A stretch of 64,000 bases of DNA from Bacteroidota bacterium (lineage in GTDB: Bacteria > Bacteroidota > Ignavibacteria > UBA10030 > UBA6906), in the NCBI GenBank assembly GCA_040756745.1, contig JBFLYO010000003.1:15072-79071 (forward strand), given 5' to 3'. The translations under genes and the position numbers were made by a program. Shown here piece after piece: positions 5,609 to 58,506 of this stretch. The stretch's first letter is position 1, and every line of letters begins with the position of its first letter. The notes beneath the pieces were generated by a model that saw only the letters and a program-made list of their open reading frames with translations, was not told where the DNA came from and did not search any database.

Positions 5609-5723
5609 TCGTACAGCGCCGGTGGGGTGGTCGGTGCGTCCATGCATCAATATACACCCCCCCGGCAAGGGAAGCAACCTTGCGCGTTGCTTCTCCCGGA
5701 GGTCGTCTGTATATTGATACGCC

Positions 5724-30433: not shown

Positions 30434-31191
30434 GTGCCTCACTGTGCTCGGCGCGGCTCATCGCGAAGCTTCGCTCGGCGGAGTCGATCGTGGCATTTAC
30501 CGGTGCGGGCATGTCGGCGGAAAGCGGAGTCCCGACATTCCGCGGAACGGACGGCATCTGGGCCAGGTTCAAACCGGAAGAGCTGGCGAACATGGAAGCG
30601 TTCATGAGAAACCCCGCGCTGGTGTGGGAGTGGTACGCGGCGAGGAAGAAGATCATTGCGGAGGTCCAGCCCAACGCCGGCCATCGCGCGCTGGCCCGCA
30701 TGGAGGAGATCGTCCCGCGGTTCGCCATTATCACGCAGAACATTGATAACCTGCACCGCAGGGCCGGGAGCCGCACGGTCCACGAGCTGCACGGCAATAT
30801 CGAGCGGAACTACTGCATGAAGTGCGGCAAAGTCTACGGGAACGAGGATGTGCTCGGCCGAACCGGTCCGCTGGCGTGCAATGCCTGCGGCGGCTTGATC
30901 CGTCCCGACGTTGTCTGGTTCGGCGAGATGCTGCCGGAAGAGGAGTGGGACGCGTCGGTCCGTGCAGCGGAAGGGGCGGATCTGTTCCTCTCCATCGGAA
31001 CCTCCGGCGTCGTCTATCCGGCAGCGTCCATCCCGCTGATGGCCCGGCGGGCCGGTGCGTACATTGTGGAAATCAACCCCGAGCAAACACCGTTGACGCC
31101 GTATGTGGACGAGTTCCTTGAGGGAGCAGCAGGCAGCGTGCTGCCGGCGCTGGTCAAAGCCATGGCGGAGCTCAGGGAGAGCAAGGAGTAG
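30430..31191 (+). CDS. cobB: NAD-dependent protein deacylase (sirtuin, CobB family)
   Basis: GAGMSAESGVPTFRG, the QNIDNLH motif, a zinc-ribbon CxxC...CxxC and HG. The start overlaps the acylase stop (ATGA). Confidence 0.9.
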   Translation: MSASLCSARLIAKLRSAESIVAFTGAGMSAESGVPTFRGTDGIWARFKPEELANMEAFMRNPALVWEWYAARKKIIAEVQPNAGHRALARMEEIVPRFAIITQNIDNLHRRAGSRTVHELHGNIERNYCMKCGKVYGNEDVLGRTGPLACNACGGLIRPDVVWFGEMLPEEEWDASVRAAEGADLFLSIGTSGVVYPAASIPLMARRAGAYIVEINPEQTPLTPYVDEFLEGAAGSVLPALVKAMAELRESKE

Positions 31192-31194
31192 GCG

Positions 31195-31335
31195 GTAGGC
31201 AGAAGTCAGTAGGCAGAAATCAGAAGTCAGTAGGCAGAAATCAGAAGTCAGAAAGAAGCCCTAAACCTTAACCTTAATCTCAATCTCGATCTCAATCTCA
31301 ATCTCACTCTCGTTCTCAATGCCCCTCAAACGCTC
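31195..31335. repeat. Intergenic repeat block, family 1: GTAGGCAGAA in three copies (21-bp tandem unit GTCAGTAGGCAGAAATCAGAA), then CCTTAACCTTAA, then ATCTCAATCTCGATCTCAATCTCAATCTC
   Basis: Read directly from the sequence between the cobB stop and the pyk start. The same motifs recur at 32776-32884, 42440-42560, 43042-43100, 43340-43400, 47729-47815 and 47905-48003. Confidence 0.8.
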
Positions 31336-31344
31336 CCACCTGCT

Positions 31345-32781
31345 ATGACTGCGCAACCGAGCAGAACCCGGATTGTATGCACGCTTGGGCCTGCGTCGAG
31401 CAGCGTCGAGACGCTGACGGCGCTCATCGGGGCCGGGATGGACGTTGTGCGGCTGAACTTCTCGCACGGCACGCACGAGGAACACCGGGAGGCGCTGAGA
31501 AACGTCCGGGAAGCCGTGCGCGTGACCGGTCATGAAGTGGCGGTCCTCCAGGACCTCCAGGGACCGAAGATCAGAATCGGCGAACTGGAGGTGCCGTCGA
31601 TCGAGCTCCGTCAGGGAGAGGAATTCACGATCACGACGGACCCGGTCGTTGGCGGACGGGGGCGGGTCTCCACGACATATGCGGGGCTTCCTCACGATGT
31701 CCATCCGGGTGCGGATATCTTGCTCGATGATGGCCGGCTTCGGCTCCGGGTTCTCCGCGTTTGGGGAAATGATGTGGAGTGCGAGGTGATTGTCGGGGGA
31801 ACGCTCAGCTCCCACAAAGGGATAAACCTCCCGGGAGTAGCGGTCAGCGCGCCATCGTTCACGGACAAAGACCTGGATGACCTTGCGTTCGGGCTTGCCA
31901 GCGAGGTCGACTATCTCGCGCTCTCGTTCGTCAGGACGGCGGAAGACATCCGTCTCCTCCGTGCAGCAGCAGCACAGGCACCCCAGCATGCACGTATGCC
32001 GGTGATTGCGAAGATCGAAAAACCGCAGGCGGTAGCCAACATCGATGAGATCATTGCAGAGGCGGACGGAATCATGATTGCCCGCGGCGATCTGGGTGTA
32101 GAGCTTCCGCCGGAGGACGTCCCGGTTCTCCAGAAGATGATCATCAGGCGGTGCAACAACGCCGGCAAACCGGTGATCATCGCGACACAGATGTTGGAAT
32201 CCATGATTGCGAGCCCGATGCCGACACGGGCAGAGGCCAGCGACGTCGCCAATGCCGTGGTCGACGGGGGCGATGCGGTCATGCTGAGCGGCGAGACGTC
32301 GGTGGGAAAGTACCCCATTGACGCCGTTCGGATCATGGAGCGGATCATCCGGAAGGTCGAATCGGAACGGCTGGTGCGCCCCAGAATCCCCGCTGAACCC
32401 CGGTCGAGCGTAACAGACCGGCACGACGCCCTCGGCCGTTCGGCGTGTGTGCTTGCGGAACAGATGAGAGCGGCGGCGATCGTCACGGTGACCAACTCAG
32501 GCCAAACGGCGAGAGTGCTGGCGCGCTATAGGCCTGACCCGCAGATCATCGCCATCACCGACAGTCCAAGAACACTCCGGATGCTGAACATTGTCTGGGG
32601 GGTACGCGGGTTGCTGGTGGAGGGACTCGATGAAGACTCCGATCATGCGCTCGCCAGGGTGCAGGAACGGCTCGTGGCATCGGGTCTGGTGAAGCGGGGA
32701 GAATACATCGTGTTGCTTGCGGGGCAGCCGTTCTTCGCGAGGGGGGGGACGAATTTTATCAAGGTGGAAAAGATAGGTTAA
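31345..32781 (+). CDS. pyk: pyruvate kinase
   Basis: Canonical N-terminus (TRIVCTLGPASSSVETL...GMDVVRLNFSHG) and the MLSGETSVGKYP motif. Confidence 0.95.
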   Translation: MTAQPSRTRIVCTLGPASSSVETLTALIGAGMDVVRLNFSHGTHEEHREALRNVREAVRVTGHEVAVLQDLQGPKIRIGELEVPSIELRQGEEFTITTDPVVGGRGRVSTTYAGLPHDVHPGADILLDDGRLRLRVLRVWGNDVECEVIVGGTLSSHKGINLPGVAVSAPSFTDKDLDDLAFGLASEVDYLALSFVRTAEDIRLLRAAAAQAPQHARMPVIAKIEKPQAVANIDEIIAEADGIMIARGDLGVELPPEDVPVLQKMIIRRCNNAGKPVIIATQMLESMIASPMPTRAEASDVANAVVDGGDAVMLSGETSVGKYPIDAVRIMERIIRKVESERLVRPRIPAEPRSSVTDRHDALGRSACVLAEQMRAAAIVTVTNSGQTARVLARYRPDPQIIAITDSPRTLRMLNIVWGVRGLLVEGLDEDSDHALARVQERLVASGLVKRGEYIVLLAGQPFFARGGTNFIKVEKIG

Positions 32782-32884
32782 GGATAAGGTTAAGGTCAAG
32801 GTCGGTTGTCGCTTGAGGAGTGTGGATTGACAATTGTGGATTCCTCCCCTTAACCTTAACCTGCTCCATCCCTTAACCTTCTCA
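32776..32884. repeat. Family 1 inverted-repeat element (GGTTAAGGATAAGGTTAAGGTCAAGGTC ... CCCCTTAACCTTAACC ... CCCTTAACCTT) spanning the convergent pyk and STAS gene ends. Probable bidirectional terminator
   Basis: The arms are reverse-complementary AAGGTTAAGG/CCTTAACCTT runs about 40 bp apart. They overlap the stop codons of both flanking genes. Confidence 0.7.
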
Positions 32885-36534: not shown

Positions 36535-38783
36535 GGCATCTGCGCCTCCGCCGCTGCTGGCGCCCGCGCGTCGAGTACTTGACGCACTTTCATGGCGAGC
36601 AGTTCAAGCTGGAACGGCTTCTGCACGAAGCCGTTGACTTGCGTCGAGAAGCTCGATGTTTCCACTCCCTCGCGGCCGTAGCCGGTGACGATGATAATGC
36701 GGACGGAAGGATTAATGCTGCGGAGCACCTCGAAGGCCTGCTTTCCTCCCATCACGGGCATGTTGATGTCGAGCAGGACAAGGTCAATCGATCCCTGCCG
36801 GGTGCGGTAGAGATCCGCCCCCGATTTCCCGTCGTGCTCCACGTAGATGGTGTAGCCGAGGCCCGCCAGCATGTCCCGTGCAATCTCGCACACGCTGATC
36901 TCGTCATCGATGATGAGAATGTTTTCGCGGCCGCGTGGCAGGCGTTGGCGGCGCTGGCGAGCTGCAGCGGGAGCTGTAGCTATGGAGCGGGGGAGGTAGA
37001 CGGAAAACGTCGTCCCACGGTGCGGTTGACTCTCCAGATTGATAAAGCCGCCGTGACTTTGCACGACGCCGTACACCACGGAAAGGCCGAGCCCCGTGCC
37101 GGAGTCCTTGGTGGTAAAGAACGGCTCGAAAACGCGGTTCTGGATTGAGCGCTCTATGCCATGCCCGGTGTCGGTGACCTGGATGAGGACGAACGGTCCC
37201 GGCTTGATGGAGGAGAACTGGCTGGTGGTATGCGCATCGGCGATCGTTACGCTGGTCGAGACGGTGAGCGTGCCGCCGTTCGGCATGGCGTCGCGGGCAT
37301 TCAGAAACAGATTGAGCAGGGCCTGCTGGATTTGCCCGTCGTCCCCGTCCACCGCTGCAACCGCCGGGGTCAGGTTGGTCACCACGGCGATCTCCTTGGT
37401 AACGCTTCGCTGAAAGAGGTGGAGTGTTTCCTCGATCAGGGCGTTGATATTGACCGGCTTGACGATGGTCTCCGTCTTGCGCGCGAACGTGAGGAGCTGG
37501 CGGGTGAGGGCGGACCCGCGCCGGGCGGATGACTCGATGATCTCGACGTATTTGTAGAGCTTAGATTTCTCGGTGAGCCGGCGGCGCATGATCGATGCGG
37601 AACCGAGAACAGCCGCCAGGATGTTGTTGAAGTCATGGGCGATCCCGCCGGCAAGGTTTCCGATGCTGTCGATCTTCTGGGCGTGGAGGAGAGCTCCTTC
37701 CATCTTCTTGCGCTCGGTGATGTCGCGCGCGACGATGCGGGCATTGACCGTCGCCCCCTGCTCGTCGAACACCAGCGACGAATTGAGTGTGACAAAGAGG
37801 TGCTGGCCATCGCGCGTGGCAAGCTGCTCCTCGACGTCCTTGAGGCCCTTGCCCTCGGCAAACATCGCCTCCACGAGTGCACGCACCTCGCTACGGCGGC
37901 TCTCGACGAAGAACTGCTCAAAGGGCTTGCCGGTGATCTCCTGCTTCGGCCTTCCCATGATTGCCGCCCCCGTCGTGTTGCAGCCGACGACAATATGCTG
38001 CCGGCTGACGCTCAGGTAGATATCGGGAGCATTTTCAAAGAGGTCGATGTACTGCTTCTCTGATTCCTTCAGCCGGTCAAACAGCCGGGCGTTGTTGAGG
38101 GCAACGCTGATCTGGTTGCCGAAGGCCTCAACGAGCTCGGCCTGCTTGAGAGTGAACATCTCGTAGTCACGCCCGGCGACGATCAGCGCGCCGGCCACAG
38201 TGTCTTTGACTTTCAGCGGGACCGACGCCCAGAACTGTACGCCCATTGCCTTGAACACGGGATCGATATGCCCGAGCCGTTCGTGCTGACGCTCTCTCTG
38301 CACATGGGGCTGCTGGAGCCAGAGTCCCGGCGTACTCGACGAGGGATCGTTGGCGGGAAGGAAGCGCAGCGTGGTGCCTTTGGAGAACTTCTGGATAAGC
38401 GAATCACCCTCCAGCATGTAGATCCACCCGAAGTCGGTCCCCAGCAGCTCGGTAATCTTATCCAGCGCCGTCTGGAGGACGACGTCGAGGTCGACCACCT
38501 GGTTGACAGCTTCTGCGATGGTGTTCATGGCGAGCAGCTGGCGGCGCTGCTCGTCGAGCTGGCGGCTGTAGCGAAGCGAGAAGTAGACGTTGGTAAACCC
38601 TATCGTCCCCACCGTGAGGATGCTGATGAAGTCCATCAGCCGCGGCGACTGCCCGGTGACGACCATAGCGCTGATGATCGTCGCCATTGAGACGATCACC
38701 GCCGTCGAGGCCACAATCTGCGCCTGTTCGACCGGCCCGAGGTTTTTGATGAACTGGCGAAGGACGGAAAAGGGATTCTTCAT
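36531..38783 (-). CDS. hybrid sensor histidine kinase (TM, GAF, PAS, HisKA, HATPase_c, C-terminal REC)
   Basis: H-box GGIAHDFNNIL, G-boxes DTGHGIE and GTGLGLSVV, and a receiver domain (LIIDDE...DLVLLDINMP). Confidence 0.85.
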
Positions 38784-38847
38784 CAGCGCTAAGGTAGGAA
38801 AACGGGACGTAAAGAAAAAGAGGAGAGAGAGGAGAAAGAATTTCGGA

Positions 38848-38950
38848 AGGCGGAGTGCGGATTGCGGAACGGAAGTTCAGATGTGCGATTTGTGATTTCG
38901 GATGTGCCTTTACTTCATTCCGCAATCCGCGCTCCGCAATCCGCAATATA
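38848..38950. repeat. Family 2 palindromic element (GGCGGAGTGCGGATTGCGGAACGGAAG ... CATTCCGCAATCCGCGCTCCGCAATCCGCAATA) between the hybrid kinase start and the hup stop
   Basis: Imperfect inverted repeat about 100 bp long built from TGCGGATTGCGGA/TCCGCAATCCGCA units. Related copies are at 48455-48482 and 56692-56782. Confidence 0.7.
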
Positions 38951-39012
38951 GTGCAGCCCCACCGGGGGAAGGCAGGGCTGCGGTGCTTGCTGCGTATAAG
39001 CCCGCGAGGGGG

Positions 39013-42440: not shown

Positions 42441-42560
42441 CGCAGAGACGCAGAGTGATAGCCTGAACTCGAGCCCTGGATTCAGATTGAGGGGATGGGC
42501 CCTCACCCTCACCTCAAACTCAATCTTGATCTCAATCTGAATCTTCTCTGCGTCTCTGCG
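42441..42560. repeat. Nested palindromic family 1 element upstream of the DUF2147 gene
   Basis: Outer arms CCGCAGAGACGCAGAG / CTCTGCGTCTCTGCGCCTCTGCGG. Inner arms GATTCAGATTGAGGGG / CTCAAACTCAATCTTGATCTCAATCTGAATC. Confidence 0.7.
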
Positions 42561-42585
42561 CCTCTGCGGCAAAAATAACAAAGGG

Positions 42586-43041
42586 GTGTCTATGCGCTTT
42601 CTGCTGGTCCTTTCGCTCCGGATCCTGGGTTTAACGTTTGCCCGGGATGATCCTCGTGCCGGCGATGCGATTCTTGGCCAATGGCTCACGGCCGAGTCTG
42701 AATCACGGATCGAGATCTACAAATGCGACAGCATCACCTACTGCGGCCGGATTGTCTGGCTGCGCGACCCACTGAAGGAGGGGAAGCCGGTGGTGGACGA
42801 TAAGAACCCGGAGGAATCATTACGGAACCGGCCGGTGATGGGGCTGGAGCTGCTGAGGGGCTTCACCTACGACGGGGACGGCGTTTGGGCGGGCGGGAAG
42901 ATTTACGATCCGAAGAGCGGGAATGATTACAGTGCGAAGATGCGGCTGACCAGTGATTCAACGCTGAACCTTCGCGGGTATGTACTCATTCCGCTCTTTG
43001 GCAGGACTGAGGGGTGGGTGCGGGTGAAGAAAGCAGATTGA
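42586..43041 (+). CDS. DUF2147 domain-containing secreted protein
   Basis: Signal peptide. The pattern GQWLTAE...IEIYKCDSITYCGRIVWL...GGKIYDPKSGNDYSAKMRL...LNLRGY matches DUF2147. Confidence 0.7.
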   Translation: MSMRFLLVLSLRILGLTFARDDPRAGDAILGQWLTAESESRIEIYKCDSITYCGRIVWLRDPLKEGKPVVDDKNPEESLRNRPVMGLELLRGFTYDGDGVWAGGKIYDPKSGNDYSAKMRLTSDSTLNLRGYVLIPLFGRTEGWVRVKKAD

Positions 43042-43110
43042 GATTTAGATTGAGATTAAGATTAAGGTTAAGGGGTGAGGCAGGTTAAGGTTAAGGGGAT
43101 CAAGCTCGTC
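43042..43110. repeat. Family 1 repeat block (GATTGAGATTTAGATTGAGATTAAGATTAAGGTTAAGGGG...GGTTAAGGTTAAGGGG) immediately after the DUF2147 stop
   Basis: Direct reading of the sequence. It is followed by a perfect hairpin GGATCCGCC-ATCGA-GGCGGATCC at 43147-43169. Confidence 0.75.
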
Positions 43111-43440
43111 GGTCATTGCGAGCGCTCTTTGCGAAGTCCGCCTCTTGGATCCGCCATCGAGGCGGATCCCGGGGGGCGGACAATCTCTGGTTAGGCAGAC
43201 AGAGGTTGCTTCGTCGCTGAGAAACGCTCCTCGGTGACCGGAAAGTGAGACGGAATGTCTGGAGCCTGAACAAGTGGCCTCGGGCAGCGAAGCTATTTTT
43301 CTCCTTGACATTCTTTTTTATAGACGCAATGACAAAGTGCTCTGTGGTTATCCTCTCAACCATACTCTCAATCTTGATCTCAATCTCAACCGTAACCCTC
43401 GTTCCCCTCAGTCCGCTCCTTGTTCTGCACTGTTCCCACC

Positions 43441-47606: not shown

Positions 47607-47728
47607 CGAGAAGAGATTTTGGTCGAAAGGATCAGGTCAAGGGGAGATTGCAGGTTGAGATCAAGACTCAGATCTTCGGATCTCCGTTGGGGCAGAATAT
47701 ATTCTGCGCTTACAGAGCCGATCTCTCC

Positions 47729-47815
47729 CTACTGACTTCTGCCTACTCCCCGCTTCTCCGTTCGCCCTACCTCCCTACCCCATACCTCCTTACCCCCTAC
47801 CTCTTTCTTCTTTAC
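47729..47815. repeat. Family 1 repeat block on the opposite strand: reverse complement of GTAGGCAGAAGTCAGTAG, followed by (CCTAC[C])n runs
   Basis: CTACTGACTTCTGCCTAC (47729-47746) is the exact reverse complement of the 18-mer GTAGGCAGAAGTCAGTAG at 31195-31212. It is followed by CCCTACCTCCCTACCCCATACCTCCTTACCCCCTACCTC. Confidence 0.75.
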
Positions 47816-47822
47816 TGCTCTG

Positions 47823-47896
47823 TCGGAGCGGGGGGATTTGAACCCCCGACCCCCTGAACCCCATTCAGGTGCGCTACCGGGCTGCGCTACGCTCCG
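47823..47896 (-). tRNA. tRNA-Pro (anticodon GGG)
   Basis: The reverse complement folds as a cloverleaf. The acceptor stem is CGGAGCG/CGCTCCG, the D-stem GCGC/GCGC, the anticodon stem CCTGA/TCAGG with loop ATGGGGT (U33, G37), and the T-arm GGGGG-TTCAAAT-CCCCC. The discriminator is A and CCA is not encoded. Confidence 0.85.
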
Positions 47897-47964
47897 AAAT
47901 ATAAAGTTGAGGATAAGGATAAGGTTAAGGGGACAAGTCGCGACGCCACATCATTCCTTCTTTT

Positions 47965-48003
47965 CCTTAACCTTAACCTTAACCTTAACCTTAACCTTAA
48001 CCT
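47965..48003. repeat. (CCTTAA)6 hexanucleotide microsatellite (family 1) overlapping the 3' end of the merR-like gene
   Basis: CCTTAACCTTAACCTTAACCTTAACCTTAACCTTAACCT is read directly. It is preceded by GAGGATAAGGATAAGGTTAAGGGG at 47909-47932. Confidence 0.9.
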
Positions 48004-48380
48004 ATCTTCTTCAACAACTCCTGCAAAAACTGCTTCGTCTCCTCCACGTCCGCGCGGAGCTGCTCGTCTTTGATTTTTGCGCGGGACTTCGGCGCGTCGA
48101 TGAGCTCGAGCTGCTCCCCCGTGTCCCCCTCCGGCGTGTAACTCTTCAGCACCTGCTTTGCCCCCTCAATCGTGTACCGCTCGTCCCGCAGCAGCTTCTT
48201 GATATAGAGGATCAGCTTAATGTCCCGGTTTGTGTAAATCCGGTTCCCCGCCCTGTTCTTCTGGGGCTTCAGATGCTCAAACTCCGACTCCCAGTACCGC
48301 AGCACGTACTGCTCGAGATCGGTGATCTTCGCCACCTCGCTGATCGAGTAATACAGCTTCTTGATGCCAAGCGATTTCAT
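47997..48380 (-). CDS. MerR family transcriptional regulator
   Basis: N-terminal MerR HTH (YSISEVAKITDLEQYVLRYWESEF) and a C-terminal coiled coil. Confidence 0.75.
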   Translation of the reverse strand: MKSLGIKKLYYSISEVAKITDLEQYVLRYWESEFEHLKPQKNRAGNRIYTNRDIKLILYIKKLLRDERYTIEGAKQVLKSYTPEGDTGEQLELIDAPKSRAKIKDEQLRADVEETKQFLQELLKKIG

Positions 48381-48482
48381 CGCGCGCTAGAGCCCAATAT
48401 ACCACGTCAAGCTACGAAAAACATGTCTGACTTGCAACCGACGCCGGCCGACAGTTCCGCAATTCGCATTCCGCAATCCGCA

Positions 48483-49040
48483 TTATTTTCTCGTCCTGCT
48501 CTTCGACAGCTTGACATCGATCTCCTTCATGCGCTTCAGCTCCTGCTGTACCTGCTGCAGGTCGGCTTCAAGATCCTGCAGGCGCCGCATGTCGGTCATG
48601 ATGGTGCCGCTCTGCCTCTTGGCGAGAGTCGTCAGGCTGTCGACCGAAGCGGTCTTCCGGGCAAGACTCTCCTGCAGCGTCCTCACCCGGCGAAGGAGGG
48701 AGACGAACATCTGGAAATGCTCACGGTCCGCTTTCTTCATCGGGAGATTGAGACACGCCGTGAACCAGTAGAGGGCGAGACTGTCGTTTCGCGCCGGGTT
48801 GAACTCGCTCGCATAGAGCAGGGCAGCCTTCCGCGCGGCAACCGGGAAGGCCGTTGATTGCGGAAATTCTGTCGCCACCACGACATAATGCTCGGCCGCA
48901 CCCTTGAGCGCCATCTCCTGCTCAAGGCTGTCGGCGAGCCGCATGTGATAGTTGACCAGATTCGCCGTCCGGCTTCCTTCGGTCCCCCCGCAGCCGGCAA
49001 GAACGCTCACGAGCAGCACGCCTGCGATCCATCGGTTCAT
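48483..49040 (-). CDS. lipoprotein with coiled-coil C-terminus, function unknown
   Basis: Signal peptide with lipobox LAGC. The first gene... (see finding) it is the last gene of a minus-strand operon. Confidence 0.55.
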   Translation of the reverse strand: MNRWIAGVLLVSVLAGCGGTEGSRTANLVNYHMRLADSLEQEMALKGAAEHYVVVATEFPQSTAFPVAARKAALLYASEFNPARNDSLALYWFTACLNLPMKKADREHFQMFVSLLRRVRTLQESLARKTASVDSLTTLAKRQSGTIMTDMRRLQDLEADLQQVQQELKRMKEIDVKLSKSRTRK

Positions 49041-52967: not shown

Positions 52968-54527
52968 GTGCGCCTCACCAGGAAAATCCTCATTGCGATC
53001 GTCCCCGTCTTTCTCATCTTCATCACCGTCAGCGTCGTGCTCCAGAATCAGTTCCAGGAACGGGAAATGATGGAAGAGGCACAGGTTGCAGCACACACCT
53101 ACGCCGACATCGTCAAAGAATCGCTCGTCAGCATGATGCTGAAGAACTACGAGGTGGACAGCAGCTTCATCGACCGCGTGAATATGTTGAAGCAGATTGA
53201 TACGCTTCGCGTGTTCGTCAATAATCTGAGAATCCGTGATGAGCTGCTGACTCCGGAACGGTACCTGCGCCTGCAACTGAAGTATGCGACCCTTCGCCCG
53301 AAAGACATGATAGAGAAGCGGGTGCTGGAAGGCGGCGAGCCCTTCTTCGAGCGGGAAGGAGAGTACTTCAGGGGCGTGATTCCCTTCACGGCCACGTCGG
53401 TCTGCCAGAAATGCCACGCCGTCCCGGTCGGGTACGCGCTGGGTGCGGCGGACATCCGGATCTCGTTTGCGCGGGTGTCGGCGGCCACGGCTCAGAACTG
53501 GAGCCGGTCGCTGATCATCTTTGTGGTCTTCGCGGCTGTCGTGATCGGCGTCGCGGTGATGATGTTCCGGATCTTCGTTTCCAAGCCCGTGCGCGGCCTG
53601 GTCGGCGCTACGTTTCAGATCAGCCGGGGGAACCTCGACACCCCGGTACCGGGGGCGGAGGTGCTTCGTCCCGGCGAAGACGAGCTTGCCGTGCTGTCCC
53701 TCCGATTCGATGAAATGAGAATCTCCCTCAAGGAAAAGATCGACCAGCTTGACCACGCCAACCGGTCGCTCTCCGACCGAAATACCGAGCTCGAAAGAGC
53801 TCTGGACCGCCTCCGCAAGGCGCAGGAGGATCTCGTCCGCAGCGAGCGTCTTGCCGTGACAGGGAAGCTGACCGCACAACTTTCACACGAGATCAACAAT
53901 CCGATCCACAATATCCAGAGTCTCCTGGAGTCCGCCCTGCGCAAGGTGAACGGCAACGTCGCCCTCCGGGAACTCATCGGCGTCGCTCTTGAAGAAGTGT
54001 CCCGGATGGCAAAGCTGACCCGCCAGATGCTCGATTTCTACCGGGGGTCAGTGGTCGAACACGAGCAGGATGAAGTGGATCTCCGGAGTCTTCTTGTGGA
54101 AACCGCGCGCAGCTACACGCCCCAGCTCGAACAGGCGGGGATCACGGTGGTCCTCGAAGCGAACGAGCCGGTTCCCCCCGTGCGTGGGTCGCGCGACAAG
54201 CTGAAGCAGGTGCTGATCAATCTCGTGATCAATGCGCGCGACGCCATGGACTCTGGCGGGATGCTGGCCCTGCGCTGCCGGGCAAACCGTGGGAGCGTCT
54301 GCGTCGAGGTTGCGGACACCGGCGTGGGGATTCCGGAAGAGAACATGGGGCGGATCTTCGAGGCGTTTTTCACCACCAAGAAGGAAGTGAGTGGCGTGGG
54401 TCTGGGACTAGCCGTCAGCTATGGCATCGTCCAGGCGCACCAGGGCACCATCGCCGTCCGCAGCACAATCGGGAAAGGGACGACGTTCATTATCGAACTC
54501 CCGGCATCGGCCGACGTCCATGTCTGA
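52968..54527 (+). CDS. sensor histidine kinase with periplasmic CxxCH heme-binding PAS-like (Tll0287/DUF3365-like) sensor domain
   Basis: TM helix, then a sensor region carrying VCQKCHAVPVGYALGAADI (CxxCH), a second TM, HAMP, H-box LSHEINNPIHNI and G-boxes DTGVGIPEEN and GVGLGLAVSYG. The start was chosen at the GTG at 52968 (RBS AGGAG). The track begins at the TTG at 52902. Confidence 0.8.
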   Translation: MRLTRKILIAIVPVFLIFITVSVVLQNQFQEREMMEEAQVAAHTYADIVKESLVSMMLKNYEVDSSFIDRVNMLKQIDTLRVFVNNLRIRDELLTPERYLRLQLKYATLRPKDMIEKRVLEGGEPFFEREGEYFRGVIPFTATSVCQKCHAVPVGYALGAADIRISFARVSAATAQNWSRSLIIFVVFAAVVIGVAVMMFRIFVSKPVRGLVGATFQISRGNLDTPVPGAEVLRPGEDELAVLSLRFDEMRISLKEKIDQLDHANRSLSDRNTELERALDRLRKAQEDLVRSERLAVTGKLTAQLSHEINNPIHNIQSLLESALRKVNGNVALRELIGVALEEVSRMAKLTRQMLDFYRGSVVEHEQDEVDLRSLLVETARSYTPQLEQAGITVVLEANEPVPPVRGSRDKLKQVLINLVINARDAMDSGGMLALRCRANRGSVCVEVADTGVGIPEENMGRIFEAFFTTKKEVSGVGLGLAVSYGIVQAHQGTIAVRSTIGKGTTFIIELPASADVHV

Positions 54528-55920
54528 TCAGGCATCCATCCTCGTGGTCGACGACGACAAGGCCTTCCGCGTCGCCACCAAAACTCTGCTGGAAGATGAA
54601 GGATTTGTCGTAGCGACTGCTGCAAGCGGCGACGAAGCGCTGACGAAGATGGAGACAGAGCAGTTCGATCTGGTGCTCTCTGATATGGTAATGGGAAAGA
54701 TGAGCGGCGTGGAACTGCTTGCCAACGTCAAAGCGAAGCGCCCCGACCTCCCCGTCATCATGGTCACCGGCTTCGGCTCCATTCAGACGGCGGTGGAGGC
54801 GATGCGGCTTGGTGCGTCGGATTACCTGACGAAACCATCCAACAACGACGAGCTGCTCATCAAGATCCGCCGCGCCCTGGAGATGCAGGACAAGGAGCGT
54901 CAGCTCCGCTCGCTTCGTGAGGAGCTGCAGGGGACCTACAGCTTCGGCAACATGGTGAGCCGCAGCCCGGTAATGCAGGAAGTGATACGTCAGGTGCAGC
55001 AGGTGGCCGACACCGACGTGACGATCCTCATCCAGGGGGAAAGCGGGACAGGCAAGGAGCTCGTCGCGCGCGCGCTCCACTTTAACAGCAAACGCTCCCT
55101 GAAACCGTTCGTCGTCGTCAACTGCTCGGCGATCCCCGAAAATCTGCTGGAGAGCGAACTCTTTGGGTATGAGCGCGGCGCCTTCACGGGAGCGACCCGC
55201 CAGCGGGCAGGAAAGTTCGAAGAAGCGAACAACGGTACACTCTTCCTGGATGAGATCGGGGACATCTCACCCGCCGTTCAGACCAAGCTGCTCCGGGCCC
55301 TTCAGGATAAAACCTTTGAGCGGGTCGGCGGAACGGGATCCATCAGCGTGAACACCCGCGTCGTTGCTGCAACCAACCGGAACCTTGATGTGATGGTCCG
55401 TCAGGGGGACTTCCGCGAGGATCTGTTCTATCGCCTCAATGTCTTCCCGATTGTACTTCCTCCGCTGCGCGAACGACTTGAAGACATCCCGCTCCTGACG
55501 GAACATTTCCTGCACCGCCATGCGGACCTGGCAGGAGGGACGGTGAAGTCAGTGGCCACCGCCGTGATCAGCGACATGATGAACTATACGTGGCGGGGGA
55601 ACATCCGCGAACTGGAGAATCTGATCAAACGCGCCATCATCAAGACCCCCGGCGAGGTGATCACGTCGCTCGAACTTCCCAACGTCGAGCCCGCCGCGCC
55701 GTCATCCGGGGAGCCCGCCGAGGGCGTCAACCTGAACACTCCGTATAAAGACTACATCGGCAGCATCATCCGCCATGCCGAGGAGCGGTACCTGGTCCGC
55801 ATGCTCCGCCTCTGCAAGGGGAACATCAACCAGGTGGCGAAGCTGATGGACGTAGACCGGAAGACCATTTATCGCAAGATGTCCGACTATTCGATCGATC
55901 CGGCCTCGTTCCGCGAATGA
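54520..55920 (+). CDS. sigma-54-dependent response regulator (NtrC family: REC, AAA+ with GAFTGA, Fis-type HTH)
   Basis: Receiver (ILVVDDD...DLVLSDMVM), Walker A GESGTGKE, GAFTGA, ESELFGYERGAFTGA and a C-terminal HTH. The ATG at 54520 overlaps the kinase stop by 8 nt. Confidence 0.9.
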   Translation: MSDQASILVVDDDKAFRVATKTLLEDEGFVVATAASGDEALTKMETEQFDLVLSDMVMGKMSGVELLANVKAKRPDLPVIMVTGFGSIQTAVEAMRLGASDYLTKPSNNDELLIKIRRALEMQDKERQLRSLREELQGTYSFGNMVSRSPVMQEVIRQVQQVADTDVTILIQGESGTGKELVARALHFNSKRSLKPFVVVNCSAIPENLLESELFGYERGAFTGATRQRAGKFEEANNGTLFLDEIGDISPAVQTKLLRALQDKTFERVGGTGSISVNTRVVAATNRNLDVMVRQGDFREDLFYRLNVFPIVLPPLRERLEDIPLLTEHFLHRHADLAGGTVKSVATAVISDMMNYTWRGNIRELENLIKRAIIKTPGEVITSLELPNVEPAAPSSGEPAEGVNLNTPYKDYIGSIIRHAEERYLVRMLRLCKGNINQVAKLMDVDRKTIYRKMSDYSIDPASFRE

Positions 55921-56061: not shown

Positions 56062-56077
56062 TGGCACAGTGGTTGAC
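56062..56077 (+). promoter_or_regulatory. candidate sigma-54 (-24/-12) promoter element TGGCACAGTGGTTGAC upstream of the ECF sigma gene
   Basis: TGGCAC-N5-TTGA compared with the consensus TGGCAC-N5-TTGCW. The GG to -12 spacing is correct but the -12 dinucleotide is GA rather than GC. It lies 53 nt upstream of the ATG at 56130 and directly downstream of the sigma-54 activator gene. Confidence 0.4.
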
Positions 56078-56129: not shown

Positions 56130-56690
56130 ATGATGACGACACGGTTCGAGCGGGAAGCCCTGACGCAGCTACCGGCGCTCCGTCACTACGCAGAGTCGCT
56201 GACGAAGGACCGGCAGCGATCTGACGACCTGGTGCAGGAAACGATGTTGAAAGCCCTCCGCTATTTCGACACGTACAGGGAGGGGACGAACTGCAGGGCG
56301 TGGCTGTTCCAGATATGCAAACACTCGTTCATCAACGAGTACCGTCGAAAGGAATACGAGCCGATCCTCGTCGATTTCCAGTCGGAGGCCGGCGGCGGAG
56401 ATGATGCGGGGGAATGGCATGGCGTGCACCCTTCGCTCAACGATGCCTCCGCGCAGCAGGATGACGGCGCGATGCTTGGAGACGAGGTGACCTCGGCGCT
56501 GCGAGGTCTCCCCCACGACTACCAGACCGTGCTGCTCCTGAACGACATCGAGGGATACACGTACGACGAGATTGCGGCGTTCATGCAGGTGCCCGTCGGC
56601 ACGATTCGCTCCCGTATCCACCGTGCCCGCAAGATGCTCGCGGCGAGGCTGGAGCGCTATGCTGAAGAGCTGGGATACAGACAGAACTAG
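56130..56690 (+). CDS. RNA polymerase sigma factor, ECF (sigma-70 group 4) family
   Basis: Region 2 (LVQETMLKALRYFDTYREGTNCRAWLFQICKHSFINEYRR) and region 4 (LLLNDIEGYTYDEIAAFMQVPVGTIRSRIHRAR). The start was chosen at MMTTRFE with RBS GGGGGAA. The track ORF extends upstream with no domain content. Confidence 0.85.
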   Translation: MMTTRFEREALTQLPALRHYAESLTKDRQRSDDLVQETMLKALRYFDTYREGTNCRAWLFQICKHSFINEYRRKEYEPILVDFQSEAGGGDDAGEWHGVHPSLNDASAQQDDGAMLGDEVTSALRGLPHDYQTVLLLNDIEGYTYDEIAAFMQVPVGTIRSRIHRARKMLAARLERYAEELGYRQN

Positions 56691-56691
56691 G

Positions 56692-56782
56692 GTGAAGCAC
56701 ATTCAATTCGGATTGCGGATTGCGAAGTGCGGAATATTCCGCAATCCACACTCCGCAATCCGCAATGCTGAGATTGCTTCAC
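56692..56782. repeat. Family 2 palindromic element between the ECF sigma stop and the cyc2-like gene start
   Basis: Outer arms GTGAAGCA...TGCTTCAC. Inner imperfect palindrome CGGATTGCGGATTGCGAAGTGCGGAATATTCCGCAATCCACACTCCGCAATCCG. Confidence 0.75.
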
Positions 56783-56850
56783 ACCGATGGCCTGAGTATA
56801 TTGCCCCGTTTCCTGTTCTTTTCCCGCAGACAGCTCACAAGGAGCGCATC

Positions 56851-58417: not shown

Positions 58418-58506
58418 TTCAGTCGGGGCTGAATATATTCAGCCCCGACTGAATCAGAAGTTGTCAATTGTCATTGCGGGGCCGGTGTGGGAGCACACCG
58501 GCCCCC
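58418..58506. terminator. two consecutive perfect hairpins after the cytochrome c gene (probable bidirectional terminator)
   Basis: The first is GATTCAGTCGGGGCTGAATAT/ATATTCAGCCCCGACTGAATC, a 19-bp perfect palindrome. The second is GGGGCCGGTGTG-GGAG-CACACCGGCCCC, followed by a T-rich tract. Confidence 0.6.

Follow-up and report, generated by a model that had tools for sequence, protein, structure and literature searches.

TCCGCAA heptamer arrays as apparent lineage-specific insertions in an Ignavibacteria genome, and their recurrence across bacterial phyla

Heptanucleotide repeats and REP elements described so far

The over-representation of heptamer repeats in bacteria has been known since 2007; as that work is relayed in a later paper, heptanucleotide repeats are the most abundant class of long SSRs in most bacterial genomes, with slippage as the proposed explanation (Mrazek 2007, in PMC4679880). 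In Xanthomonas, GGGAATC repeats mostly consist of four units and are ~90% intergenic. On average 28 nt separate them from the upstream ORF, to which they are much nearer than to the downstream one; they seldom occur between divergent genes, and each genome has 70–75 convergent pairs, which could form stem-loops (PMC4692102, Rehm et al. 2015). Geobacter metallireducens carries 49 'four tandem heptanucleotide' elements (Gmet_H4##, consensus GGACCGG), located both between and within genes, as well as five-heptamer MTYCTGA sites, and the authors called these elements putative global regulatory elements (PMC2700814, Aklujkar et al. 2009). REPs, for their part, stabilise 3′ ends, and where they lie no further than 15 nt from a stop codon they stall ribosomes (PMC12306157).

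Here, we describe arrays of the heptamer TCCGCAA (TTGCGGA when read on the opposite strand) at three loci, A, B and C, of an Ignavibacteria genome. They lie in what we call the window, i.e. the whole stretch of 64,000 nucleotides that was analysed, and copies were thus counted as three loci within 64 kb of a 159-kb contig. The interesting part of these elements is their recurrence across phyla combined with their regular architecture.

Anatomy and lineage distribution of the three loci

The three loci comprise five arms (Table 1), each made of about four tandem TCCGCAA/TTGCGGA heptamers and each 28–32 nt long; for every one of the five, Tandem Repeats Finder (TRF) reported a period of 7 and 3.6–4.3 copies. 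The preliminary description had placed at these loci a dispersed family whose members are imperfect palindromes with TGCGGAT/TCCGCAA as units, and it was right as to the family, the coordinates and the sequence. What it called a half-copy, at 48455–48482, is the single arm of locus C, whose partner is absent. Allowing two mismatches or fewer, the 13-mer TCCGCAATCCGCA occurs 20 times in the window, as compared with 3.5 ± 1.9 times in shuffled sequences, none of 100 of which reached 20, and 14 of the 20 matches fall within the three loci. There is no copy of the heptamer module inside an ORF of the 64-kb window.

Table 1. Coordinates of the repeat arms and of neighbouring features in the window
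Feature	Position	Strand	Remarks
Locus A, G-rich arm	38840..38869		TTGCGGA-type on + strand; ~4 heptamers, outer ones decayed
Locus A, spacer/loop	38870..38917		48 nt; partly decayed heptamers GATGTGC GATTTGT GATTTCG GATGTGC
Locus A, C-rich arm	38918..38947		TCCGCAA TCCGCGC TCCGCAA TCCGCAA T
HU terminator hairpin	38953..38981	-	GC-rich stem-loop just past HU stop codon; outside repeat family
Locus C, single arm	48455..48484		C-rich on + strand
Locus B, outer stem left half GTGAAGCA	56692..56699		1–2 nt 3′ of sigma stop TAG
Locus B, G-rich arm	56704..56735		ATTCGG ATTGCGG ATTGCGA AGTGCGG AAT
Locus B, C-rich arm	56736..56767		TCCGCAA TCCACAC TCCGCAA TCCGCAA
Locus B, outer stem right half TGCTTCAC	56775..56782		overlaps -35-like hexamer of next gene
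Promoter-like motif TTGCTT-17 nt-TATATT	56774..56802	+	conserved in relatives without repeat; not part of element

The spacers of the two paired elements are unrelated: at locus A, 30-nt arms with a complementarity of 87% are separated by 48 nt, whereas the 32-nt arms of locus B (81%) abut directly. An outer stem with 8/8 pairing extends the palindrome of locus B to 56692–56782. The C-rich arms of loci A and B are 94% identical, the variant second unit included. Read along the minus strand, on which the neighbouring genes lie, the arm of locus C is the G-rich form AATGCGGATTGCGGAATGCGAATTGCGGAA. No target-site duplication flanks locus A or locus B, and GTAG/CGTC is absent from the arm ends at all three loci. 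When folded as RNA, locus A gave −80.8 kcal/mol (z = −7.0), for a stretch that includes the neighbouring HU terminator hairpin, and locus B gave −49.4 kcal/mol (z = −7.4), with a predicted stem of ~30 bp for each of the two. Locus C did not fold (z = +2.5). The hairpins anticipated in the preliminary description are accordingly predicted to be strong at A and B, and the single-arm copy fails to share them. An Rfam search of the elements returned nothing at the gathering threshold, sub-threshold matches being confined to generic long-hairpin (miRNA precursor) models, and a sigma-70 consensus scan gave no promoter at the three loci.

The orthologous sites were compared in syntenic contigs of relatives, namely L121, L124 and L127 for loci B and C (67–72% identity of the 365-aa ORF that follows element B) and L208, L210 and L211 for locus A (82–86% identity of the kinase). 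The named relatives are Ignavibacteria. The element is missing at the B and C sites in the first three contigs and at the A site in the other three, and the flanking terminator and promoter-like motifs are kept in all of them. With each of the three orthologous sites empty in the syntenic relatives, the comparison of sequences indicates that the elements were inserted in this lineage specifically, in the gap that separates a stop codon or terminator from the promoter of the following gene, and we consider the identity and history of the elements secure. In 118 kb of relatives, there were 0 arrays of the TCCGCAA family and almost no repeats of period 6–8, as against 27 TRF rows of periods 5–9 in the window. 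The lack of conservation among relatives argues against an important function, and the hairpin is not needed for insertion, since locus C has none.

Short-period tandem repeats of other units crowd the gaps between genes of the window (31180–31330, 32765–32880, 42500–42570, 43025–43100, 43353–43404 and 47720–48013), with hexamers (CCTTAA/AATCTC/AGATTG), heptamers (GTAGGCA/GAAGTCA) and octamers (CCCTACCT/TCTCTGCG) as units. Arms belonging to different loci are 82–92% complementary, e.g. 31266–31304 with 43035–43073, and when two arms share one gap the purine/G-rich arm comes first. These gap repeats are nearly absent from the syntenic relatives. Two related 34-nt palindromes behind genes (47683–47716 and 58419–58452, e.g. 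TCAGTCGGGGCTGAATATATTCAGCCCCGACTGA) resemble ordinary hairpins of the terminator type and do not belong to the heptamer family.

At the site corresponding to locus A, the relatives possess a canonical HU terminator, GCAGTCCCG...CGGGACTGC followed by a T-run, and a TTGAAT-17-TACATT motif ~8 nt before the kinase ATG. In the window, the stem of this terminator is kept, the T-run has given way to the palindrome, and the −35-like hexamer can no longer be recognised. The minus strand at 38783–38840 retains a −10-like box, TACCTT, and has lost the −35-like hexamer; to judge from these letters, expression of the kinase may rely on read-through from HU across palindrome A. The arm of locus C begins 0 nt past the TAA stop codon of a 185-aa ORF and upstream of a conserved GGTTGCA(T/A) box of merR, a site occupied in the relatives by 5 nt or by an unrelated purine-rich stretch. 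The part of the window that is richest in repeats also contains tRNA-Pro(GGG) (47822–47896, minus strand) as a neighbour of merR, and in L127 (1–1021) a phage-type integrase gene adjoins merR on the corresponding side. The tRNA-Pro/merR region could be an integration hot spot.

A Pfam scan covering nine ORFs of the window confirmed the labels hybrid His-kinase, HU, ECF-type sigma and MerR given to the neighbouring genes in the preliminary description. The ORF it called 'cyc2-like' had no Pfam match, and an outer-membrane beta-barrel domain was found in a few homologues. This 365-aa ORF after element B is locus tag AB1428_02095 (100% identity), and the kinase after element A likewise matches a protein on record at 100% identity. 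In L121, L124 and L127, where the heptamer element is absent, the ORF is preceded by TTGCWT-17 nt-TATATT, and in L127 the stop codon of the sigma gene runs straight into this motif. Its promoter-like status is a matter of conservation only. In the window, the motif sits at the 3′ edge of palindrome B, outside the heptamer arms, and the palindrome spans the gap from the sigma stop codon (56688–56690) to the −35-like hexamer. Since the motif lies at that edge, a transcript starting from it would be devoid of hairpin B, which is predicted instead to belong to the 3′ UTR of the sigma transcript, beginning at the sigma stop codon (a distance of 0–2 nt). The sequence TTGCTT-17 nt-TATATT seems to be the promoter consensus of the lineage, and a divergent pair recurs near 5.68 kb, at 5677 (−) and 5687 (+).

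The sigma gene itself is located downstream of a sigma-54 activator gene (54421–55920) and is preceded in four genomes by a sigma-54-type box, TGGCAC-N5-TTGA (56062–56076 in the window). Its ORF most likely starts at ATG 56130 (186 aa), and not at 55917, as far as the sequence tells; the sigma protein is 187–194 aa long in two of the three relatives, the call in L124 being 235 aa. This arrangement suggests a cascade leading from the kinase/activator via sigma-54 and the ECF sigma factor to the porin-cytochrome operon.

The heptamer in other genomes and in viral contigs

One genome per species (596 Gb) was scanned with TCCGCAA-N7-TCCGCAATCCGCA, a pattern of 20 specified bases for which ~1 chance match is expected, and at least 120 stretches were found. 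Among the matches listed, 80 of 80 record titles denote MAGs, and the heptamer-bearing MAGs represent at least 12 phyla. Acidobacteriota, Planctomycetota, Verrucomicrobiota, Gemmatimonadota, Bacteroidota (including Ignavibacteria and Saprospiraceae), Nitrospirota, Chloroflexota, Desulfobacterota, Binatia, Armatimonadota, Hydrogenedentota and Gammaproteobacteria all occur among the matches listed. Several matches are on contigs of 0.7–4.5 Mb, including those of long-read assemblies. An assembly artefact is ruled out by the long-read assemblies and the contigs of 1–4.5 Mb, and the reading frame kept inside genes with Pfam domains on both sides likewise speaks against it. In viral contigs, the heptamer accounted for 58 stretches, as compared with 3, 13 and 6 for three control heptamers that were composition-matched and stop-free in all six frames, which makes it 4–20 times commoner. 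Arrays of period 7 were ~10 times commoner in the fetched loci than those of periods 5, 6, 8 and 9, also when the TCCGCAA family was excluded. With element B as query, BLAST returned no match among plasmids or cultured phages, in a search where the low-complexity filter may hide matches.

The length of the arms is sharply peaked. Ascertained arms peak at 31–33 nt, and 36 of the 52 partner arms, which were not ascertained, measure 30–33 nt; the peak in other genomes and in viral contigs lies at 30–33 nt, and it stays there with an 18-nt seed. With an 18-nt seed and tolerant length, four units were counted in 57 of 95 arms, three units in 20 and five units in 5. A variable unit at a fixed place of the module was considered and rejected: viral scans in which unit position 2 or 3 was left free returned 58 and 68 stretches, respectively, without asymmetry.

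The polarity of the arms is equally regular. Whichever strand is read, the order within inverted pairs is 5′-(TTGCGGA)n...(TCCGCAA)n-3′, in a ratio of 60:2, and both pairs of the window obey this G-rich-first rule. In 40 pairs of other heptamers (plus two hexamer pairs, split 1:1), the G-rich arm precedes its partner by 29:6. Inverted pairs of CGGGAAC occur four times in L217 (2670–5473), AGGCTGT is found in L173, and L016 contains further inverted heptamer pairs. Because single viral or genomic contigs carry several pairs of other heptamers, heptamer-array hairpins are a general feature of such organisms and not one specific to AATCCGC.

Position relative to genes follows the orientation of the arm. 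When ORFs of at least 100 aa are considered, 20 of 52 paired elements have a stop codon 10 nt or less upstream of their G-rich arm. For single arms, the count is 11 of 78 with the G-rich form and 2 of 78 with the C-rich orientation. The unit is stop-free in all six frames, and single arms deep inside long ORFs have TCCGCAA on the sense strand in a ratio of 33:7, encoding SAIRNPQ repeats. Pfam domains flank in-frame arms on both sides in HrpA, a Ser/Thr kinase (activation loop), IleRS, UvrA, an AAA_12 helicase and a PSD1 protein. Individual in-frame copies from MAGs of other phyla are exemplified by L090 (4098–7046), L119 (2689–7044), L053 (2094–4949), L058 (1392–3275) and L048 (523–3633), with UvrA, IleRS, the ATPase domain of a histidine kinase and the activation loop of a Ser/Thr kinase as host proteins; the peptides added by such modules are NPQSAIRNPQ or LRIADCG...SAIRNPQ. 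Whole palindromes are in frame in L053, whose flank, read by eye, we take to be UvrA, and in L058, whose flank is presumably the N-box-to-G1-box stretch of a histidine kinase. In L039, the stretch between the two arms consists of 21 residues that are genuine PSD1 sequence, identified as such by Pfam.

The loops of the paired elements in other genomes are unrelated between copies or, as in L039, consist of host coding sequence, and their length ranges from 12 to 150 nt, as compared with 0–48 nt in the window. Inverted duplication including the flanks can be discarded as a general route, flank complementarity being 5.10 of 10 against a null value of 4.70. On the sequence, the 8/8 outer stem of element B would be an exception to this absence of flank complementarity, or a coincidence. 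A literature search for the heptamer, covering all 14 rotations and 14-mers, produced chance primer-type matches only, and no paper in it mentions the heptamer. The occurrence across phyla and in viral contigs, the discrete length of ~32 nt, the polarity, the abutment on stop codons and the in-frame copies in housekeeping genes have apparently gone unreported before.

Origin, possible effects and relation to known systems

The explanation that we favour, with a probability of roughly 0.55, is that these are four-heptamer modules inserted recently in the gaps between a stop codon or terminator and the next promoter, selfish or neutral in themselves and REP-like if paired. Each arm would represent one copy of a discrete module of ~30–32 nt, four tandem TCCGCAA, and the receiving gaps would be short and selectively permissive. 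Two convergent modules, G-rich first, would give loci A and B a 3′ UTR stem of ~30 bp, and the one module of locus C, being without hairpin, would probably have no structural effect. The hairpin of a paired element may block 3′-to-5′ exonucleases and/or end or pause read-through transcripts, and element B, at the stop codon, might in addition impede a ribosome that terminates at the end of the sigma ORF. All in all, the sigma-54-driven transcription unit of the sigma gene would be insulated from the downstream promoter, and sigma expression could be lowered or insulated; element A could provide the same insulation between HU and the kinase. On this analysis, a REP-like effect on RNA stability, termination or translation is plausible. 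Neutral slippage does not account for the peaked length, the fixed polarity or the use of one and the same heptamer in different phyla; these features hint at some active mechanism or at a bound factor.

One such mechanism would be the copying of a discrete mobile module, ~32-nt (AATCCGC)x4.5, to new sites by some enzymatic route, e.g. a transposase or RAYT-like enzyme, templated 3′-end addition at DNA breaks or gene conversion. The module would then behave like the Rickettsia palindromic elements or REPINs, and hairpins and regulation would be by-products. We put this forward tentatively, as a possibility well short of even odds. It would account for a length that peaks at four units instead of decaying, for the near-identity of the right arms of A and B down to their variant second unit, for the excess of one identical heptamer over its controls in so many phyla and in viral contigs, for the in-frame arrays in UvrA, IleRS, HrpA, kinases and others, whole palindromes included, for the polarity of this and other heptamers, and for a burst that is restricted to one lineage among its relatives. 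However, neither target-site duplication (at A or B) nor a conserved interior accompanies the copies, their complementarity stops short of the flanks, no candidate enzyme emerged, and the similar behaviour of dozens of heptamers is not explained by a single templated enzyme. A mobile-module or break-healing mechanism would thus explain the peaked length, the polarity and the shared heptamer, and would do so without target duplication, conserved interior or enzyme. It is tempting to go further and to speculate that (AATCCGC)x4.5 is a ~32-nt module written by a horizontally shared mechanism into at least 12 phyla and their viruses, with the G-rich strand toward the centre of the pair, in the first bases after stop codons and with in-frame copies tolerated in essential genes. 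This is doubtful; if true, the long-noted excess of four-unit heptamer repeats in bacteria would have been left by a so far undescribed activity of DNA insertion or break healing, and not by polymerase slippage. Alternatively, the heptamers could be arrays of binding sites, recognised by a protein or a small RNA, that unite the kinase, MerR and cytochrome-porin genes in a post-transcriptional or transcriptional regulon, as proposed for the TAACTGA and Nostoc heptamers. Such proposals for other heptamers (PMC4679880; bioRxiv 10.1101/2022.06.06.494920) lend the idea some weight, as do the preference of the G-rich form for positions after stops and of the C-rich form for positions before starts or on the sense strand of ORFs, and the complementarity of arms from different loci, which makes pairing in trans possible. 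We nevertheless hold a regulon to be improbable: relatives with the same genes and promoters lack the elements at the orthologous sites, the neighbouring genes are functionally unrelated, a spacing of 7 bp is out of step with the helical phasing that a DNA-binding dimer would need, paired copies bury the sites in their stem, and copies also lie inside housekeeping ORFs of other phyla.

The remaining two explanations attribute a conventional regulatory role to the hairpins, and we regard both as very unlikely. According to the preliminary description, element B sits exactly where one would expect an ECF-dependent promoter or an attenuator for the cytochrome-porin gene. Its location, with the ECF sigma gene on one side and the probable target gene on the other, and the overlap of the right outer stem with the −35-like hexamer, agree with this. 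However, TTGCWT-17-TATATT is kept in three relatives that have no heptamers, and its place downstream of the palindrome would put hairpin B upstream of the predicted transcription start; no ECF motif of the GGAAC/CGT type is seen in element B by eye, and the same module stands behind unrelated genes at A and C and in many phyla. The proposal is therefore not supported, and with it a false regulatory lead is removed, since palindrome B would be neither promoter nor leader of the cytochrome-porin gene; the sigma-54 promoter before the ECF sigma gene and TTGCWT-17-TATATT before the porin gene are better candidates. It is still sensible to ask whether the predicted hairpin B curbs read-through out of the sigma gene. 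The elements might also be canonical intrinsic (Rho-independent) terminators, built from repeats by chance, given their strong stems downstream of ORFs and the pyrimidine-rich tract that follows element A on the gene strand. Against this, a terminator scan found no terminator-like site at any of the three loci and there was no T enrichment after 50 paired elements of other genomes, which together make efficient intrinsic termination unlikely; moreover, 30-bp stems with loops of such varied length are atypical, HU has its own conserved terminator stem, and locus C is stemless.

The inserted modules that we favour offer four handles, i.e. a unit common to many phyla and to viral contigs, a sharp four-unit length, arm polarity and abutment on stop codons, and the strict polarity of the arms holds for ~40 other heptamer families too. 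The choice between slippage, active insertion and a bound factor is thus testable by comparative genomics and simple reporters.

Compared with described systems, the elements are most similar to the GGGAATC repeats of Xanthomonas and the GGGGAYT repeats of Nostoc, with which they share a 7-nt unit, a modal number of four units, proximity to an upstream ORF and convergent pairs; sites that differ among related species are a further likeness to the Xanthomonas repeats. In contrast to GGGAATC, TTGCGGA has no G-tracts, so that no quadruplex is possible, and TCCGCAA is common to many phyla whereas GGGAATC belongs to one genus; nor does the Xanthomonas paper report stop-codon abutment or in-frame housekeeping copies (PMC4692102). 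The Geobacter elements, a multicopy set, are likewise four-heptamer modules, and differ in the unit, in coming from one isolate and in the lack of an analysis of polarity or position. TAACTGA/STRR repeats of Beggiatoaceae, cyanobacteria and Bacteroidetes are also mainly intergenic tandem heptamers, with one heptamer common to distant lineages without an evident mechanism of transfer (MacGregor 2015, PMC4679880). However, these are direct repeats of 2–6 or up to 43 copies, with one inverted case, placed just upstream of start codons, whereas the TCCGCAA elements are mostly paired or just downstream of stop codons.

REP and BIME sequences of enterobacteria and pseudomonads are, like the paired elements, dispersed intergenic 3′-UTR hairpins, many of them within 15 nt of a stop codon. 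A REP, however, is a single imperfect palindrome of 20–40 nt with a conserved GTAG/CGTC head and linked to RAYT transposases, whereas the stem of the present elements arises from two separate tandem arrays with a variable spacer and no GTAG head. Membership of the REP/BIME family was rejected, the single arm of locus C not being self-folding and the arm ends lacking the head motif, and so was membership of the MITEs, in view of the missing duplication at A and B and of spacers and loops that are unrelated. The Rickettsia palindromic elements are said to be palindromic repeats in frame inside conserved genes, tolerated as extra peptide loops; they are reportedly 100–150 bp long, with conserved internal sequence, and confined to one genus. 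The likeness to them lies in the TCCGCAA copies in frame inside genes of other phyla, not in those of the window. With a period of 7, about four units, an intergenic position behind ORFs and convergent pairs, the elements therefore belong with the four-unit heptanucleotide repeats and are a new sequence family in this known, poorly understood class.
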